Notes under the pieces: generated by a model | The model's database searches: none | What the model was told of the DNA's origin: nothing | Seen by the model: only the letters and a program-made list of their open reading frames with translations | Program-made: the position numbers and the translations under genes | Source of the DNA: a virus | Reading direction: 5' to 3' (one strand) | UHGV virus genome: UHGV-0281862 | Length of the DNA stretch: 10,630 nucleotides | Shown: positions 2,258 to 9,260 of the stretch, in pieces | Position numbering within the stretch: the stretch's first letter is position 1 | Layout: each line of letters starts with the position of its first letter

Positions 2258-3067
2258 ATGAATAATCTGATGGTCATTGATGGTATTGAAGTTCGTCGTG
2301 ATGCTTATGGGCGTTACAGCCTGAACGATCTGCATCGCGCAGCAGTAGCATCTGGTGCAAATGCCAGAACCAAGGAGCCGGGAAAGTTTCTTTCCAGCCA
2401 ACAAACTGTTGAGCTTGTTCATGAATTGACCAACACCCAGAATTTGGGTGTTGACCCGGTGAGTGTGATTCATGGGGGAAATGAACGGGGAACGTATGTC
2501 TGCAAGGAACTGGTGTATGCCTATGCAATGTGGATCAGCCCGTCATTCCATCTGAAGGTGATCCGTACTTTCGATATGGTAACCAGCACACCGGAAAAAT
2601 TATCCGGGCAGGCTGCTGACAAGATGCAGGCTGGCGTGATCCTGCTGGACTTTATGCGCCGGGAATTAAACCTGTCTAACTCATCAGTGCTTGGAGCCTG
2701 TCAGAAACTCCAGGAGGCTGTTGGCTTACCGAATCTGGCACCGCGCTATGCCATTGATGCTCCTGCTGACGCGCCTGATGGCTCAAGCCGCCCCACGCTG
2801 TCACTGAGTGCACTGCTGAAGCAGTATGGTATCCGCCTGACAGCTAATCAGGCATATCACCAGATGGCGAAGCTGGGGATCGTTGAACAACGTGAACGAT
2901 ACAGCCGCACTGCGATTAACAACATCAAAAAATTCTGGTCGCTGACGGCGAAAGGCTGCATGTTCGGCAAGAACATCACCAGTCCCGCAAATCCGCGCGA
3001 GACGCAGCCGCATTTCTTCGAATCCCGGTTCCCTGAGCTGTTAAAGCTGCTCGATACCGTTCATTGA
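2258..3067 (+). CDS. KilA-N domain protein (N-terminal KilA-N DNA-binding domain plus uncharacterised C-terminal domain)
   Basis: Strong RBS AAGAGGAG 8 nt upstream of ATG 2258. The N-terminal roughly 100 aa (MVIDGIEVRRDAYGRYSLNDLHRAA...YVCKELVYAYAMWISPSFHLKVIRTFD) match the KilA-N/APSES-type pattern. Function of the C-terminal half is not recognised. Confidence 0.65.
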   Translation: MNNLMVIDGIEVRRDAYGRYSLNDLHRAAVASGANARTKEPGKFLSSQQTVELVHELTNTQNLGVDPVSVIHGGNERGTYVCKELVYAYAMWISPSFHLKVIRTFDMVTSTPEKLSGQAADKMQAGVILLDFMRRELNLSNSSVLGACQKLQEAVGLPNLAPRYAIDAPADAPDGSSRPTLSLSALLKQYGIRLTANQAYHQMAKLGIVEQRERYSRTAINNIKKFWSLTAKGCMFGKNITSPANPRETQPHFFESRFPELLKLLDTVH

Positions 3068-3068
3068 G

Positions 3069-4064
3069 GTGACCGTGAGAGCGCTACTGACCCCTGAAAT
3101 TGCCCCGCGTATGGGGATCGTATTGTTCAGGCCCGGTTCAGAGCTGATGCCCCTGTTTATGCAGGGGCGTGTCCTGCTGGAGCCTGAGCCGGAACGTTAT
3201 TCATCTTTCGCCAGTGGTGCCGTTCCGGCGGCATCACAACCGCTGGCGGATGATCCTGCCGTTCGGGCCGTGTTCCGCAATGAGGCAGTGATTCGTCGTG
3301 CTGGTGGAGTGGAATGTCTTGAACGCTGGTTACTTCGTGAAAAAGGTTGCCAGTGGCCTCATTCCGACTGGCACAGCGAGAACATGACCACAATGCGACA
3401 CGCTCCGGGCGCAATCCGTCTGTGCTGGCACTGCGATAACCAGCTGCGCGATCAGTTCACGGAACGGCTGGAATCAATGGCAACGGATAACTGTACCCGC
3501 TGGGTGTTGTCTGTTGTGCGTCGGGATCTCGGTTTTGATGACAGTCACGTTGTGACAATGCCGGAACTGTGCTGGTGGCTGATTCGTAATGACCTGGCGG
3601 ATGCCTTACCGGAAAGTGCAGCCCGTAAGGCACTGAGATTACCGAAGCCTGTTGTGCCGTCTGTCACCCGGGAAAGTGACCTTGTGCCTTCGGTTCCTGC
3701 CACCAGCATCATCCAGGATAAAGCGAAAAAGGTGCTGGCGCTGAAAGTGGATCCGGAGTCGCCGGAGTCTTTTATGTTACGCCCAAAACGTCGCCGCTGG
3801 GTTAATGAAAAGTACACGCGCTGGGTTAAGACACAGCCGTGTGCATGTTGTGGAAAGCCCGCTGATGATCCCCACCACCTGATAGGCCACGGTCAGTGTG
3901 GAATGGGTACAAAAGCGCATGACCTTTTTGTGTTGCCTTTGTGCAGAAAGCATCACGACGAGCTGCATGCGGATACCGTGGCATTTGAAGAGAAGTATGG
4001 CTCTCAGCTGGAGCTGATATTTCGTTTTATCGATCGTGCGCTGGCAATTGGCGTACTGGCGTAA
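3069..4064 (+). CDS. DUF968-like prophage protein (YdfU-like) with C-terminal Cys/His HNH-like zinc-finger motif
   Basis: 331-aa ORF directly upstream of the Q-like gene, the position YdfU holds in the K-12 Qin prophage. C-terminal motif CACCGKPADDPHHL...CRKHHDELH resembles an HNH/zinc-binding fold. The start is uncertain (GTG 3069, GTG 3075 or ATG 3111; none has a good RBS). Confidence 0.6.
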   Translation: MTVRALLTPEIAPRMGIVLFRPGSELMPLFMQGRVLLEPEPERYSSFASGAVPAASQPLADDPAVRAVFRNEAVIRRAGGVECLERWLLREKGCQWPHSDWHSENMTTMRHAPGAIRLCWHCDNQLRDQFTERLESMATDNCTRWVLSVVRRDLGFDDSHVVTMPELCWWLIRNDLADALPESAARKALRLPKPVVPSVTRESDLVPSVPATSIIQDKAKKVLALKVDPESPESFMLRPKRRRWVNEKYTRWVKTQPCACCGKPADDPHHLIGHGQCGMGTKAHDLFVLPLCRKHHDELHADTVAFEEKYGSQLELIFRFIDRALAIGVLA

Positions 4065-4077
4065 GTGGAGAACGAGC

Positions 4078-4830
4078 ATGAACCTTGAAGCCTTACCGAA
4101 ATATTACTCCCCGAAATCTCCAAAACTGAGCGATGACGCACCGGCGACAGGCTCTGGTGGTTTAACAATTACGGATGTGATGGCTGCGCAGGGGATGGTG
4201 CAGTCAAAAGCACCGCTTGGGTTTGCTTTATTCCTGGCAAAAGTTGGTGTTCAGGATCCTCAGTTTGCGATTGAAGGTCTGCTCAATTACGCGATGGCAC
4301 TGGATAACCCGACATTGAATAAATTGAGTGAAGAAACCCGGCTACAGATCATTCCTTACCTTGTGAATTTTGCCTTTGCTGATTATTCCAGGTCTGCGGC
4401 AAGTAAGGCTCGCTGTGAGCATTGTGCTGGTACTGGATTTCATAATGTATTGCGCGAGGTGGTGAAACACTCCAGAAGCGGGGAATCTGTTATTAAGGAA
4501 GAGTGGGTGAAGGAACTATGTCAGCATTGTCATGGTAAGGGAGAAGTCAGCACAGCATGCAGAGGGTGCAAGGGTAAAGGTATTGTCCTGGATGAAAAAA
4601 GAACCCGGCTTCATGGCACGCCTGTTTATAAGGTTTGTGGGCGTTGCAATGGAAACCGGTTTAGCCGTTTACCAACCACACTGGCGCGGCTTCATGTCCA
4701 GAAGCTGGTACCAGACCTGACGGATTATCAGTGGTACAAAGGATATGCAGATGTCATTGATAAACTGGTTACAAAGTGCTGGCAGGAAGAAGCATATGCA
4801 GAGATACAATTGAGAAAGGTGACAAGATAA
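4078..4830 (+). CDS. late-gene antitermination protein Q-like (QuuQ/YdfT-like)
   Basis: 250 aa from ATG 4078 (GGAGA 8 nt upstream; the track's 4036 start lies inside the upstream gene). Sits immediately upstream of a promoter plus lambda-like pause element plus intrinsic terminator, the arrangement expected for Q. Has several CxxC pairs (CEHCAGTG, CQHCHGKG, CRGCKGKG, CGRCNG) consistent with a zinc-binding antiterminator. Length matches the K-12 Qin protein. Confidence 0.65.
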   Translation: MNLEALPKYYSPKSPKLSDDAPATGSGGLTITDVMAAQGMVQSKAPLGFALFLAKVGVQDPQFAIEGLLNYAMALDNPTLNKLSEETRLQIIPYLVNFAFADYSRSAASKARCEHCAGTGFHNVLREVVKHSRSGESVIKEEWVKELCQHCHGKGEVSTACRGCKGKGIVLDEKRTRLHGTPVYKVCGRCNGNRFSRLPTTLARLHVQKLVPDLTDYQWYKGYADVIDKLVTKCWQEEAYAEIQLRKVTR

Positions 4831-4861
4831 ATGGTTTTCGCCGAAGATGACGACATGATGC

Positions 4862-4908
4862 TTGCATTTTTCAAAAAATATGGATAAGATTTTCCCAACG
4901 ATGGGCTT
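4862..4908 (+). promoter_or_regulatory. putative late promoter (pR'-like) with promoter-proximal pause/Q-loading element
   Basis: -35 TTGCAT (4862-4867), 17-bp spacer, -10 TAAGAT (4885-4890). Immediately downstream is CCAACGATGGG, which matches my recollection of the lambda pR' initial transcribed region (CAACGATGGG) that induces the sigma70-dependent pause where Q engages RNA polymerase. Confidence 0.45.
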
Positions 4909-5332: not shown

Positions 5333-5408
5333 GGCCCTTTAGCTCAGTGGTGAGAGCGAGCGACTCATAATCGCCAGGTCGCTGGTTCAAATCCAGCAAG
5401 GGCCACCA
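5333..5408 (+). tRNA. ileZ: tRNA-Ile2-like, anticodon CAU (Met cannot be excluded from the anticodon alone)
   Basis: 76 nt with a manually folded cloverleaf: acceptor GGCCCTT/AAGGGCC, D-arm GCTC-AGTGGTGA-GAGC, anticodon loop CTCATAA (CAT), T-arm GCTGG-TTCAAAT-CCAGC, 3' ACCA. Closely resembles E. coli ileX-type tRNA. Confidence 0.8.
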
Positions 5409-5417
5409 TATCACATA

Positions 5418-5494
5418 CCGCCATTAGCTCATCGGGATAGAGCGTCAGCCTTCGAAGCTGGCTGTGCGGGGTTCAAGTCCCCGATGGCGGTCCA
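5418..5494 (+). tRNA. argN: tRNA-Arg, anticodon UCG
   Basis: 77 nt: acceptor CCGCCAT/ATGGCGG, D-arm GCTC-ATCGGGATA-GAGC, anticodon loop CTTCGAA (TCG), T-arm CGGGG-TTCAAGT-CCCCG, discriminator T, CCA. The gene symbol follows the ileZ-argN-argO trio of lambdoid/Stx phages; which Arg gene is argN and which is argO is uncertain. Confidence 0.8.
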
Positions 5495-5507
5495 TTATCA
5501 GCATCAT

Positions 5508-5584
5508 GCGTTGTTAGCTCAGCCGGACAGAGCAATTGCCTTCTAAGCAATCGGTCACTGGTTCGAATCCAGTACAACGCGCCA
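5508..5584 (+). tRNA. argO: tRNA-Arg, anticodon UCU
   Basis: 77 nt: acceptor GCGTTGT/ACAACGC, D-arm GCTC-AGCCGGACA-GAGC, anticodon loop CTTCTAA (TCT), T-arm ACTGG-TTCGAAT-CCAGT, discriminator G, CCA. Confidence 0.8.
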
Positions 5585-5629: not shown

Positions 5630-5844
5630 CTCACAATTCAGGCGGTTGACTGTTGTCTGGTTTGCGGGGAGTTTGTTAAAAGAAACTGGCATGGTGAATC
5701 CCCCTGTGCGGAGGGGCAATCAGCGAGTAGGTATATGGGATAATCGCGGATTCAGGTGCTGGTACTGAATTCACCGGGAGGCACCCGGCACCATGCAATG
5801 GCACATAGCGCCACTCTCCAGCCCCTCTCCGGAGGGGCTTTTCT
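5630..5844 (+). ncRNA. candidate structured noncoding RNA module A (promoter-like box to intrinsic terminator)
   Basis: Begins CTCACAATTCAG-N4-TTGAC. Contains a conserved hairpin GCATGGTGAATCCCCCTGTGCGGAGGGGC, the conserved block CACCGGGAGGCACCCGGCACCATG, and ends in terminator GCCCCTC-TCCG-GAGGGGC-TTTTCT (5821-5844). All blocks recur in module B at 6098-6328 with divergent spacers. No conserved ORF. Confidence 0.35.
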
Positions 5845-6032
5845 GTGCCGGATACATCACAGTTTCTGGAACCTTAGGTACTACAGTATCAGTCAGGGTG
5901 CTATATTTTCAGATGTGATGAAAGCCTGTCAGCAGGCAGGGCGTATCGGAAATGACCCAGTAGAGAAAACGTTGACTCAGATACCGGTGCTGAGTTACCG
6001 GGAAACCGGCATCACATGACCGCTATCCTTCC

Positions 6033-6060
6033 AGGCCCATCCGCTCCGGTGGGCCTTTTT
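6033..6060 (+). terminator. intrinsic terminator between the two modules
   Basis: AGGCCCA-tccgctccgg-TGGGCCT hairpin followed by TTTTT. Confidence 0.5.
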
Positions 6061-6097
6061 ACTGCAGAAAACAGGTTCCCCGTTAAATGCTATGTTG

Positions 6098-6328
6098 CTC
6101 ACAATTCAGTAAGTTGACAGTTGCCTGTCAGACTGGGCATTTGTTAAAAAAATTTCGCATGGTGAATCCCCCTGAGCGGAGGGGCGACTGGTGACGGTAT
6201 AATCTCTGATTATCAAAACGAGAATGACGCGGGTTTAGTGGCACCGGGCTGAACTCACCGGGAGGCACCCGGCACCATGTGCATGATGATACAGATACGC
6301 GGCTTTAGCCCCTCTCCGGAGGGGTTTT
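6098..6328 (+). ncRNA. candidate structured noncoding RNA module B (paralogous to module A)
   Basis: Begins CTCACAATTCAG-N4-TTGACA. Shares TTTGTTAAAA, GCATGGTGAATCCCCCTGAGCGGAGGGGC and CACCGGGAGGCACCCGGCACCATG with module A; contains a perfect TATAAT at 6198-6203; ends in terminator CCCCTC-TCCG-GAGGGG-TTTTCTT (6309-6328). Small ORFs inside differ between copies, so protein coding is unlikely. Confidence 0.35.
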
Positions 6329-6559
6329 CTTGTGGGCAAAAAAAGCCCGCGCTGGGAGACGCGGGCGGCAAGGAATAAACAATAAAACGTGAAGTAATAT
6401 TTCAGCTGGCGAATAATACCCCATAGTAATCACTCTGCGCAACTGCGCGGTCTTTTTCGAATTGCGGGCTGTCGTCTCTCTTCTGCCATTGTCCTGTAAC
6501 TTCCGGACTTCAGCCCGCTCCTTATTTTACTCACAATATTATCCCGGCCGGGAGGATTC

Positions 6560-7055: not shown

Positions 7056-7271
7056 ATGGACCAGATGGAAAAAATCACAACAGGTGTGTCATACACCACG
7101 TCAGCGGTGGGAACGGGCTACTGGTTCCTGCAGTTGCTGGACAGGGTTTCCCCGTCTCAGTGGGCGGCAATAGGCGTGCTGGGGAGTCTGCTGTTTGGGC
7201 TGCTGACATATCTGACTAACCTGTATTTCAAAATCAGAGAGGACCGTCGTAAGGCGGCACGGGGAGAGTAA
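7056..7271 (+). CDS. S21-type pinholin (class II holin) with dual-start motif
   Basis: 71 aa: [71 protein letters not shown], very similar to the phage 21 S pinholin (two transmembrane domains, C-terminus ...[20 protein letters not shown]). Met1/Met4 give the antiholin/holin dual start; RBS GGGAGACGGGG upstream. Confidence 0.85.
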
Positions 7272-7275
7272 TTCA

Positions 7276-7620
7276 ATGACTCAAAACTATGAACTGATTG
7301 TGAAAGGGATCCGCAATTTTGAGAATAAAGTTACGGTAACTTTAGCATTACAGGACAAAGAACGCTTTGACGGTGAAATTTTTGACCTGGACATCTCGCT
7401 GGACCGTGTTGAAGGTGCTGCGCTGGAGTTTTATGAGGCAGCGGCCAGAAGGAGCATCAGACAGGTCTTCCTGGATGTCGCTGCCGGGTTATGTGAAGGG
7501 GATGAGCAGTCGCCGGAAAAGCGCCCCGTAATTTTAGAGGCGCAGAATGTATGGATAACCTACAAAGGAAAGCTACCGGGAAGGATTACTGGTTCCCTGA
7601 AGACTCCGCCGAAATGGTAG
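7276..7620 (+). CDS. hypothetical protein inserted between holin and endolysin (possibly the YdfR-like protein found at this position in K-12 Qin)
   Basis: 114-aa ORF starting 5 nt after the holin stop, with GGAGAG 7 nt upstream. No catalytic motif recognised. Its 3' end overlaps a convergent minus-strand ORF by 35 nt. Confidence 0.5.
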   Translation: MTQNYELIVKGIRNFENKVTVTLALQDKERFDGEIFDLDISLDRVEGAALEFYEAAARRSIRQVFLDVAAGLCEGDEQSPEKRPVILEAQNVWITYKGKLPGRITGSLKTPPKW

Positions 7621-7858
7621 TTTTGCCAGCATAATTTTCTTCCAGCAATGCCGCCAGCCACTTGAAAGAATTTTGTTGTTCCTGGGACCATTTGGGGTTG
7701 CGTGATTCAAAATGAATGGATGCCAGCGTTGGCAGCATTTGCTCCCTGGGAATTGATAAGGCCAGATGTGAAAATGCAACAGTGAGGGCATTTACATCAT
7801 CCCGAAGCCTGGAAATGCAGTCGAGCAACTCCTGTAGAGAAATGGTGCTATTGTCCAT
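7586..7858 (-). CDS. hypothetical small protein encoded antisense inside the lysis cassette
   Basis: 90-aa minus-strand ORF with a strong RBS (AAGAGGA, 5 nt spacer) before its ATG at 7858. Lies between the holin-proximal gene and the endolysin. No recognisable domain; predicted mostly helical. Confidence 0.3.
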   Translation of the reverse strand: MDNSTISLQELLDCISRLRDDVNALTVAFSHLALSIPREQMLPTLASIHFESRNPKWSQEQQNSFKWLAALLEENYAGKTTISAESSGNQ

Positions 7859-7963: not shown

Positions 7964-8497
7964 ATGAACGCAAAAATCAAATACGGCCTGTCAGCTGCAG
8001 TTCTGGCGCTGATTGGAGCAGGCGCATCAGCTCCTCAGATACTTGACCAGTTTCTGGATGAAAAAGAGGGTAACCACACTACGGCATACCGCGATGGTTC
8101 CGGCAACTGGACCATCTGTCGGGGGGCCACGATGGTGGATGGAAAACCCGTTTTTCCCGGTATGAAACTGTCGAAGGAAAAATGCGACCAGGTCAACGCC
8201 ATTGAGCGTGATAAGGCGCTGGCATGGGTGGAGAAAAACATCAAAGTGCCATTGAGCGAACCCCAGAAAGCGGGGATCGCGTCATTCTGTCCGTACAACA
8301 TTGGTCCCGGTAAGTGTTTCCCGTCGACGTTTTATAAACGAATTAATGCAGGTGATCGCAGGGGAGCGTGTGAGGCGATTCGCTGGTGGATTAAGGACGG
8401 TGGCAGAGACTGCCGTATTCGTTCAAACAACTGCTACGGTCAGGTATCCCGTCGTGACCAGGAGAGCGCGCTGGCGTGCTGGGGTATCGACAGATAA
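7964..8497 (+). CDS. SAR endolysin (phage 21 R-type lysozyme, GH24 family)
   Basis: 177 aa. N-terminal weakly hydrophobic Gly/Ala-rich segment (YGLSAAVLALIGAGASA) typical of a signal-anchor-release domain, followed by the lysozyme catalytic triad spacing E-x8-D-x5-T (EGNHTTAYRDGSGNWT). Pairs with the pinholin. Confidence 0.85.
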   Translation: MNAKIKYGLSAAVLALIGAGASAPQILDQFLDEKEGNHTTAYRDGSGNWTICRGATMVDGKPVFPGMKLSKEKCDQVNAIERDKALAWVEKNIKVPLSEPQKAGIASFCPYNIGPGKCFPSTFYKRINAGDRRGACEAIRWWIKDGGRDCRIRSNNCYGQVSRRDQESALACWGIDR

Positions 8498-8587
8498 GCA
8501 GAATATTTTGCTGAAAAATAAGGCATGGCCACGCGGGCGGATAACATGAAATCCTGCGAAGTGGCGAAACGTAAGTGAATAAAAGTA

Positions 8588-8620
8588 AAAACCCCGTTTG
8601 TTGGCACCAAGCGGGGTTTT
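8588..8620 (+). terminator. terminator-like hairpin between the endolysin and spanin genes
   Basis: AAAACCCCG-tttgTTGGcaCCAAg-CGGGGTTTT: a perfect 9-bp outer stem with an inner 4-bp stem, followed by T residues. The flanking A-run and T-run could allow function in either direction. Confidence 0.35.
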
Positions 8621-8656
8621 GTGTTTCCTGACTCCGGAAAAGTCAAAGGAGAAAGT

Positions 8657-8794
8657 GTGTTTGATTTTAGCAAACTGATTCGGGAGATTCGAGTGATGGC
8701 TGAAAAATTATCCACCTGGAAGTTCATTCTTATCTGGCTGGTGTTTGTGATTATGGCCTCTGGTTATTTCATCGGTCAGATACGCTGGTGGTGA
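8657..8794 (+). CDS. candidate 45-aa single-pass membrane protein, translationally coupled to Rz
   Basis: GTG 8657 preceded by AAAGGAG with a 5-nt spacer (alternative in-frame ATG at 8696). Translation [45 protein letters not shown] has a hydrophobic core. Stop TGA 8792-8794 sits 1 nt before the Rz ATG. Below the 60-aa cutoff of the ORF track. Confidence 0.3.
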
Positions 8795-8795
8795 A

Positions 8796-9260
8796 ATGAA
8801 CCGCGTACTGTGCGTGGTCATCATTGCCCTGCTGGTGGCCTGTGGTGCGCTTAGTCTGGGGCTGAATCATTACCGTGATAACGCCATTACCTACAAAGCC
8901 CAGCGCGACAAAAATGTCAGAGAACTGAAGCTGGCGAACGCGGCAATTACTGACATGCAGATGCGTCAGCGTGATGTTGCTGCGCTCGATGCAAAATACA
9001 CGAAGGAGTTAGCTGATGCGAAAGCTGAAAATGATGCTCTGCGTGATGATGTTGCCGCTGGTCGTCGTCGGTTGCACATCAAAGCAGTCTGTCAGTCAGT
9101 GCGTGAAGCCACCACCGCCTCCGGCGTGGATAATGCAGCCTCCCCCCGACTGGCAGACACCGCTGAACGGGATTATTTCACCCTCAGAGCGCGACTGATA
9201 ATAATGCAAAAACAACTTGAAGGGGCACAGCTATACATTCGAGAGCAATGCCTCAGATAA
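8796..9260 (+). CDS. Rz: Rz inner-membrane spanin subunit (lambda-type)
   Basis: 154 aa with an N-terminal transmembrane segment. The sequence from [17 protein letters not shown]... through ...MQKQLEG matches my recollection of lambda Rz nearly residue for residue. Confidence 0.9.
9016..9198 (+). CDS. Rz1: Rz1 outer-membrane lipoprotein spanin subunit, embedded in Rz in the +1 frame
   Basis: 60 aa, [60 protein letters not shown]: lipobox VVGC, proline-rich mature part, essentially lambda Rz1. RBS AAGGAG upstream of ATG 9016. Confidence 0.85.

Follow-up and report, generated by a model that had tools for sequence, protein, structure and literature searches.

Our results demonstrate that the interval between the endolysin gene and the Rz gene of UHGV virus genome UHGV-0281862, a 10,630-nucleotide (nt) stretch referred to here as the window, harbors a small conserved gene preceded by two conserved RNA hairpins. 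The window is the late region of a lambdoid Escherichia coli prophage. The gene is under coding constraint, the RNA structures upstream of it are conserved, gene and hairpins are mobile, and some synonymous sites of the gene are frozen. We favor, with a confidence somewhat better than even, the interpretation that hairpin and open reading frame (ORF) form one mobile cassette of ~215 bp encoding a late membrane peptide that resembles type I toxins and would be guarded by RNA, including an antisense RNA. The components of the cassette, observed or predicted, are as follows.

Positions 8578 to 8794, plus strand: the whole cassette (~215 bp), consisting of an A-rich run, hairpin 1, hairpin 2, and the 45-codon ORF.
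Positions 8588 to 8620, both strands: hairpin 1, a stem-loop resembling a bidirectional intrinsic terminator, flanked by an A-run (8578 to 8591) and a T-run (8617 to 8630).
Positions 8624 to 8652, plus strand: hairpin 2, a stem-loop sequestering the Shine-Dalgarno (SD) sequence AAAGGAG (8645 to 8651), which lies in its 3' arm.
Positions 8657 to 8794, plus strand: the 45-codon ORF with a GTG start, annotated as hypothetical protein WP_000459345.1, a tail-anchored single-pass membrane peptide.
Positions 8664 to 8692, minus strand: a putative antisense promoter within codons 3 to 12, with a -35 element TCGAAT (8692 to 8687), a 17-nt spacer, and an extended -10 element TGC-TAAAAT (8672 to 8664).
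Positions 8578 to 8657, minus strand: a predicted cis-antisense RNA of about 75 to 80 nt, complementary to the start codon, the SD sequence, and hairpin 2, and ending at hairpin 1 and its U-run.
Positions 8682 to 8698, plus strand: a putative internal start, with GGGAG (8682 to 8686), a 9-nt spacer, and the ATG of Met14 (8696 to 8698), which would give a 32-amino-acid (aa) form (8696 to 8794).

The ORF is a genuine, conserved gene for a small single-pass membrane protein. As originally predicted from the sequence, it begins with GTG (8657 to 8659) 5 nt downstream of the SD sequence, and its TGA stop codon (8792 to 8794) is separated by one base (A8795) from the Rz ATG at 8796. The predicted hydrophobic single-pass character of the product was also borne out, with Kyte-Doolittle 19-mer means above 2.0 across residues 22 to 42 and a transmembrane (TM) segment at about residues 23 to 42. 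The N-terminal 22 residues are amphipathic with a net charge of +2, and the C terminus reads GQIRWW. Among the 159 copies that were compared, 30 peptide sequences and 39 sequences of the 138-nt ORF are distinct; all have 45 codons, and all but three start with GTG. The median pairwise ratio of nonsynonymous to synonymous substitution rates (dN/dS) for these 39 ORFs is 0.15, with dS saturated between clades. The original prediction had named a frame not conserved in related prophages as one part of a possible refutation; the frame is conserved throughout this set. The peptide matches PHROG 6632 (phrog_6632) from end to end (positions 1 to 45 of 45; E value, 1.2e-29), a catalog entry labeled "hypothetical," function unknown. 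Relatives at 47 to 87% identity occur in 11 other Enterobacterales genera (Trabulsiella, Citrobacter, Edwardsiella, Yersinia, Izhakiella, Sodalis, Brenneria, Symbiopectobacterium, Serratia, Providencia, and Dryocola), in the Salmonella phages SPN3UB, FSL SP-016, and SEN34, in Escherichia phage Rac-SA53, and in Pseudomonas phage YMC11/02/R656. When 1.84 billion representative proteins were searched with a profile, only 41 clusters were returned, of 32 to 86 aa, none of them fused to another domain. Searches of Pfam, NCBIfam, and PADLOC with four peptide variants gave no family and no resemblance to a known toxin family. The ORF is unannotated in most phage records, including those of H-19B and of dozens of phages encoding Shiga toxin (Stx) 1a, 2a, and 2c. 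The proposal of an undescribed small membrane protein therefore stands, and the protein is essentially uncharacterized. A minus-strand ORF of 95 aa (8440 to 8727), annotated in phage CP-1639, was dropped from consideration, as it belongs to no family and spans the hairpin.

The leader is conserved as RNA. Hairpin 1, which had been singled out as a strong hairpin with a T-run, has a 13-bp stem, a 7-nt loop, and a folding free energy (dG) of -18.9 kcal/mol (z = -3.2 against dinucleotide shuffles, 2 of 200 of which fold equally well). A terminator scan reports it, with the tail GTGTTTCCTG, as the best terminator-like site in the region. The tails are U-rich in both directions (6.7 T of 10 on the plus strand and 7.5 on the minus strand), and by sequence the hairpin has the GC-rich stem-loop and U-tract of an intrinsic terminator on both strands, termination activity itself being a prediction. 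Compensatory changes affect 8 of its 12 pairs, and 96.7% of alignment cells are paired (25 sequences). Both hairpins were found upstream of the ORF in every homolog folded, in a shared layout of A-rich run, GC-rich hairpin, and T-rich run (AAAGCGAAA-CCCCG...CGGGG-TTTCTGTTTCT), followed by the SD hairpin. Over the two hairpins together, 12 of 20 consensus pairs show compensatory changes and 94.4% of cells are paired, compared with 43 to 61% when partners are slid; none of 500 shuffles reaches the observed covariation. One stem, for example, appears as AAAACCCCG/CGGGGTTTT, AAAGCCCCG/CGGGGCTTT, and AAAGCTCCG/CGGAGCTTT, and hairpin 2 (consensus helices 2 and 3) appears as CCTTG/CAAGG, CGTTA/TAACG, and TGACT/AGTCA. 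The ribosome-binding site, rated excellent in the original prediction, is indeed present, but because its SD sequence lies within a conserved hairpin it is structurally masked. A covariance model of the cassette leader, termed R1, scores 78.6 bits at positions 8581 to 8659 of the window and recovers the leader upstream of every family member. An upstream mini-ORF (MATRADNMKSCEVAKRK, 8528 to 8581), considered as an attenuation leader, was dropped, since this stretch is a context-specific flank outside the cassette.

The limits of the cassette can be read from its relatives. Homology among distant loci extends from ~10 to 12 nt ahead of hairpin 1 up to the stop codon, while prophage Sp15 of strain Sakai matches the window from position 8498, after the endolysin gene, to about 8587 and then diverges. 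On these grounds we assign ~8578 to 8794 to the cassette and 8498 to 8577 to the flank. The earlier description of the whole interval as a mosaic joint thus holds for the cassette, not for the flank. The GC content of the cassette is 0.43, against 0.53 in the flanking endolysin and Rz genes, and the corresponding genes of lambda (R/Rz) and of the K-12 prophage Qin (rrrQ/rzpQ) overlap with no spacer at all. By its composition and distribution, then, the segment is inserted foreign DNA, a mobile cassette. Qin lacks the cassette, and so a named K-12 small protein at this position (ynfS, ydfR, or others) was ruled out. A recombination site resembling integron attC was rejected because no GTTRRRY-type core is present.

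The cassette occurs in at least 17 distinct combinations of flanking genes. Its commonest context is directly 3' of an endolysin gene and usually 5' of a spanin gene. These endolysins belong to at least four unrelated families supported by Pfam (GH24 lysozyme, GH108, M15 peptidase, and CHAP), two further upstream proteins being left without a Pfam family, and lambda-type or other Rz genes lie downstream of these endolysin-side copies. Elsewhere, the cassette lies between the baseplate genes gpV and gpW (SEN34, Rac-SA53, and 17 further loci), after DUF2612 or tail fiber genes, after tail protein K, after the gene for a 777-aa protein, in the tail region of Pseudomonas phage YMC11/02/R656, and in a prophage accessory island among ParE, RelB/YafQ, HicAB, and BrnA genes. 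This distribution bears on the second role offered in the original prediction, that of a leader peptide translationally coupled to Rz and setting Rz expression. The arrangement that prompted it, a stop codon 1 nt before the Rz ATG, recurs in a Citrobacter locus (L007). However, most of the distinct contexts are without Rz (baseplate V/W, tail, 777-aa protein, toxin-antitoxin [TA] island), the distance to the following gene ranges from 1 nt to over 100 nt, purifying selection acts on the peptide sequence itself, and the Rz genes of lambda and Qin do without such a leader. At every insertion site, the stop codon is the exact right edge of the cassette, which accounts for the one-base gap and deprives it of value as a sign of coupling. 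The diversity of contexts without Rz contradicts the coupling idea, which we regard as very improbable; judged by these insertion sites, the adjacency to Rz is incidental.

R1 also finds the same leader before other small ORFs with a single TM segment and different N termini, all ending in AIRWW and a stop codon. Additional leader-bearing cassettes are present at three loci.

Locus L171, positions 2429 to 3087: three cassettes in tandem.
Locus L167, positions 2420 to 2635, 3124 to 3379, and 4650 to 4884: three cassettes.
Locus L170, positions 2105 to 2363: two cassettes.

The cassettes of L167 interleave with ParE, RelB/YafQ, and HicAB genes, in a neighborhood of TA genes represented by L167 to L169. 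In Pseudomonas phage YMC11/02/R656, an ORF of the AIRWW type (…DAGIVARRLANAALIL…) follows the family member (L162, 3174 to 3290).

Synonymous variation is distributed unevenly along the 45-codon ORF. Mean third-position synonymous entropy is 0.46 in the N-terminal half versus 1.01 in the C-terminal half (Mann-Whitney p = 0.0009). The synonymous sites of codons 3 to 6 (GAT TTT/ATT AGC AAA) and 10 to 12 (GAG TTG CGA) are invariant, whereas codons 7 to 9 vary freely. Read on the minus strand, the frozen pattern is TCGCAA (TCGAAT in the window), 17 nt, and TGC-TAAAAT. The extended -10 element TGCTAAAAT, or close variants of it, is kept even in the Pseudomonas phage despite its GC-rich region, and three synonymous sites within the -10/TG motif (Ser5 C, Phe4 T, and Asp3 T) are all fixed toward the promoter consensus, again with the Pseudomonas phage included. 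A -10-like hexamer with A2 and T6 is present at the same offset in all 14 cassettes examined, as TAAAAT (N terminus DFS or MDF), TATACT (KYT), TACAAT (KLY), or TAGAAT (NSS); the set spans four ORF types with unrelated N-terminal amino acids. The chance frequency expected for such a hexamer per scanned segment is 1.5% when five of the six bases must match and 9.6% when four must. The RNA predicted from this site would leave its anti-SD 5' end free and form a stem-loop followed by a terminator (dG, -23.2; z = -3.3), a fold equaled by none of 200 shuffles. Codons 3 to 12 thus probably contain a minus-strand promoter from which an antisense RNA of ~75 nt is made across the start region. Hairpin 1 would then be the terminator of the antisense gene, which is why it would lie upstream of the ORF and move with it. 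A different minus-strand promoter (8779 to 8750; CTGACC-18-CATAAT), reported by the promoter scan, was dropped because its -10 element falls in codons not conserved among relatives. Long-range mRNA structure as the cause of the frozen codons was also dropped, as RNAalifold detected none and the single-sequence fold is no better than that of shuffles (z = -0.3).

A second constraint is visible around Met14, which is invariant in 39 of 39 sequences and in the most distant relatives. The codon for Arg9 is always CGG or AGG and never CGT or CGC, a restriction that keeps GGGAG 9 nt upstream of Met14. In Serratia sp. Ag1 (L014, 2508 to 2615), a truncated copy consists of codons 13 to 45 only and abuts the stop codon of gpV (TAA TTG ATG); this copy is without the leader, the hairpins, and the antisense promoter region. 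The invariant Met14, the Arg9 codons with their GGGAG, and the truncated Serratia copy suggest that a second, 32-aa product is made from Met14. The initiation region of this form would lie outside the predicted antisense duplex.

Two apparent in-frame starts (GTG 8657 and ATG 8696), each with an SD sequence, an RNA hairpin over the upstream one, and, in the window, a location in the lysis cassette recall the dual-start holins, namely, lambda S105/S107 with its sdi structure and S21 68/71. This raises the possibility that the gene serves lysis specifically, its product being an antiholin- or holin-like protein with two starts or else regulating a membrane-tethered endolysin or the spanin, with the 45- and 32-aa forms corresponding to S107/S105 and hairpin 2 to sdi; such a role would be compatible with either regulatory model, antisense guarded or not. 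The commonest insertion site, immediately 3' of an endolysin gene from one of at least four unrelated families and most often 5' of a spanin gene, points the same way, as does Sp15, which has at the same junction an insert with an antirepressor gene and an unrelated 48-aa TM ORF before Rz. On the other hand, no lysis gene adjoins the many copies found among baseplate or tail genes or in TA islands. The window already has a full set of S21 holin, endolysin, and Rz/Rz1. Unlike those of dual-start holins, the two starts are 13 codons apart rather than 2 or 3, and the product would have one TM helix and a short aromatic C terminus (GQIRWW) in place of the highly charged hydrophilic tail of a holin; holin genes also stand beside the endolysin gene, usually before it, while this ORF follows the endolysin gene or lies far from lysis genes. 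We consider a dedicated lysis accessory unlikely. The Sp15 ORF (ECs_5741; L164, 3749 to 3895, minus strand of the locus) encodes 48 aa with one hydrophobic segment and stops 7 nt short of the Rz ATG, so that Sp15 too has a small membrane ORF directly preceding Rz, though one of different sequence.

Under the interpretation that we favor, that of an RNA-guarded, toxin-like late peptide, the 45-aa product would be tail anchored in the inner membrane, with a cytoplasmic N terminus, one TM helix, and a C-terminal RWW. Its synthesis would be restrained by three layers. First, the bidirectional terminator immediately upstream should let no transcription into the ORF except late transcription that is antiterminated (Q modified); Q-modified RNA polymerase of lambdoid phages ignores terminators. 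Second, a conserved hairpin would bury the SD sequence of a weak GTG start. Third, we infer a cis-antisense RNA of ~75 nt that would cover the SD sequence and start codon and stop at hairpin 1. In the lysogen, transcription entering the cassette would halt at hairpin 1; the antisense RNA, together with the SD hairpin and the weak GTG start, would silence any leak, and the peptide would be off. After induction, the late transcript would read through the hairpin and outnumber the antisense RNA, and the peptide would reach the inner membrane late, together with holin, endolysin, and spanins.

Among known systems, the closest in architecture are the type I TA systems symE/SymR, hok/Sok (including hokW-sokW), ldr/Rdl, and zorO/OrzO. 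The cassette shares with them a small (<60 aa) hydrophobic single-TM peptide, here 45 aa with one hydrophobic segment across the 30 distinct peptides, a structured 5' leader that hides the SD sequence, and a multicopy, tandem habit with TA genes as neighbors. SymR is transcribed from a promoter within the 5' part of the ORF and covers the SD sequence and start codon; the antisense RNA of ~75 nt predicted here over SD sequence and start would have the same geometry. In contrast to type I TA systems, the cassette has no toxin promoter, a terminator precedes the gene, and expression seems tied to antiterminated late transcription. The peptide also has no sequence similarity to known type I toxins (Pfam, NCBIfam, and PADLOC). 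In phage P22, the cis-antisense RNA sar (~70 nt) keeps translation of the adjacent ant gene from initiating, and the cassette resembles it in placing a small antisense RNA, predicted in our case, over the ribosome-binding site of a phage gene. Unlike the product of the present ORF, the target of sar is a regulatory protein rather than a membrane peptide; sar is not a mobile cassette, and no sequence relation exists between the two. A phage-borne type I toxin, HokW (hokW-sokW), has been reported to help lysis and release of phage Sp5 (PMC8621323). Given this precedent, the architecture, the tandem and multicopy habit, and the TA-island neighbors, the peptide is most likely, by analogy, membrane active and toxin-like.

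Several observations weigh against this interpretation. The putative -35 element is weak (3/6), and the promoter scan did not report the minus-strand site at 8664 to 8692. The frozen codons also encode strongly conserved residues (D-F-S-K and E-L-R), and they adjoin the start codon, where AU-rich unstructured sequence is favored anyway. At the related locus L170, there is just a shifted 4/6 hexamer. Neither the promoter scan nor inspection revealed a plus-strand sigma-70-like promoter inside the cassette, the homology having its left edge ~10 nt 5' of the terminator hairpin, and the cassette thus lacks one defining feature of classical type I TA loci, a toxin promoter of its own. In the TA island of L167, the source of transcription through the hairpin is not evident. 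Rfam, searched with the window and five related loci, has no family at the cassette and gave only a subthreshold match to the rimP leader, due to the terminator. A literature search by accession, peptide sequence, and topic found no description of cassette or peptide, and no leader, antisense, or peptide string was matched in the supplements of a Salmonella small-protein census or of an enterohemorrhagic E. coli (EHEC) study of Hfq by cross-linking and analysis of cDNA (CRAC).

These observations could be accommodated by a simpler view, in which the cassette is a plain late-gene moron without an antisense RNA and the membrane protein is merely cotranscribed with the late operon. Hairpin 1 would then be an insulator, a terminator, or an mRNA-stabilizing stem, hairpin 2 and the GTG start would keep translation low, and the frozen synonymous sites would reflect translation-initiation constraints plus the internal start. 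The coding constraint and both hairpins, all directly observed, are equally at home here; the weak -35 element and the lack of any antisense transcript trace in Rfam or in the EHEC Hfq-CRAC supplements favor this view, and the conserved GGGAG and Met14 alone account for part of the codon freezing. Yet it leaves unexplained why a terminator-like hairpin with a conserved A-run stands upstream of the gene and moves with it, why Ser5 AGC, Asp3 GAT, and Phe4 TTT are constant even in the GC-rich Pseudomonas phage, and why a -10-like hexamer occurs at the same offset across unrelated N termini. We regard this view as possible and yet rather unlikely. A moron in the sense of Juhala et al. 2000 is reportedly an extra gene between otherwise adjacent genes, with its own promoter upstream and a terminator downstream. 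The cassette resembles morons in its insertion between contiguous genes, its deviant GC content, and its lysis and tail hot spots. It differs from them in that its terminator is upstream, that it has no downstream terminator of its own and no sense promoter, and that its sole complete predicted transcription unit is on the opposite strand.

Classical morons, such as lambda bor and lom and HK97 gp15, are expressed from the prophage. With HK97 gp15 and DicB as models, the peptide could be imagined as a membrane protein that benefits the lysogen, by superinfection exclusion or by inhibiting an inner-membrane transporter that other phages use. Classical moron sites (tail and lysis regions), a small inner-membrane protein, and wide horizontal spread would suit this role. 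However, the cassette has no plus-strand promoter, its upstream terminator and buried SD sequence oppose expression in a lysogen, and PADLOC gave no match, all of which make a lysogen-benefit function quite improbable.

The shared leader of otherwise different ORFs permits a broader and more tentative proposal, which we put forward as possible while considering it doubtful. The cassettes may form a superfamily of promoterless type I toxin modules triggered by phage antitermination, each combining a terminator that works in both directions, a hairpin that locks the SD sequence, and an embedded promoter for antisense transcription. At least four peptide types, tail anchored and ending in IRWW, would share the leader, sometimes in tandem arrays, and among temperate phages throughout the Gammaproteobacteria the cassettes would colonize accessory islands as well as late operons. 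The peptides would be membrane active and released only in cells committed to lysis, tuning lysis timing or aborting competing infections.

The genes around the cassette in the window are arranged as follows.

5' part of the window: a Q-like antiterminator gene, a methyltransferase gene, three tRNA genes, and STnc100-like small RNA copies, in this order.
Positions 7056 to 7271: S21-type holin (PF04971).
Positions 7276 to 7620: DUF1327/YdfR gene, between holin and endolysin.
Positions 7964 to 8497, plus strand: phage-21-type endolysin (Phage_lysozyme, PF00959; E value, 4e-24; phrog_7) with a hydrophobic N-terminal segment.
Between 8497 and 8796: endolysin-Rz spacer of 298 bp.
Positions 8498 to 8577, plus strand: endolysin-side flank, common to Sakai Sp15 and outside the cassette.
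Positions 8796 to 9260, plus strand: Rz i-spanin (PF03245; E value, 1e-52).
Positions 9016 to 9198: Rz1, embedded in Rz (PF06085; E value, 5e-20).

The original assignment of holin and endolysin to the 21 type and of Rz/Rz1 to the lambda type agrees with these family matches and with the 86% identity of Rz to lambda Rz. The endolysin gene of the window is an intact ORF of 177 aa. The 298-bp spacer recurs in 323 phage records and in 2,005 of 5,426 complete E. coli genomes, a single genome having as many as 7 copies; strains UTI89, S88, APEC O1, and ATCC 11775 are identical to the window across the queried 298 bp. In ATCC 11775 (L001, 8466 to 9000), the endolysin gene beside the identical cassette is annotated as a frameshifted pseudogene, and hokD lies ~7 kb upstream in the same prophage. 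In phage CP-1639 (L002, 2515 to 3300), only ~0.6 kb separates stx1B from the 5' flank of the cassette, a gap in which neither holin nor endolysin is annotated. The layout is suggestive of an S-R deletion by which the cassette and Rz were spared. A minus-strand ORF of 90 aa (7586 to 7858), annotated in RefSeq and matching phrog_2411 (E value, 5e-55), is convergent with the DUF1327/YdfR gene, the two overlapping at the 3' end of the latter. Tandem matches to STnc100 (RF02076) at 5660 to 5850, 5889 to 6062, and 6128 to 6337, two strong (136 and 161 bits) and one weak (30 bits), lie just downstream of the tRNA cluster at 5333 to 5584 (CAT, Arg-TCG, and Arg-TCT anticodons). This stretch is the region after the Q gene, the site of stx in Stx phages.

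Few pieces of phage DNA have been studied as closely as the R-Rz junction of lambdoid and Stx phages, yet the conserved gene described here is mostly unannotated. Within 40 bases, its sequence would hold overlapping codes for a protein, an antisense promoter, and an internal ribosome-binding site, the latter two being inferred. The covariance model R1 can be used to find further cassettes. If the superfamily proposal is correct, such a cassette has been overlooked in about one-third of complete E. coli genomes and at the R-Rz junction of H-19B-type Stx phages. If the interpretation favored here is correct, the cassette would add a new family of small protein and antisense RNA to phage lysis biology and would represent a type-I-toxin-like design without a promoter of its own, armed by antitermination. 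It would then be a candidate modifier of lysis timing, and hence of Shiga toxin and phage release, in Stx1, Stx2a, and Stx2c phages and in the prophages of extraintestinal pathogenic E. coli.

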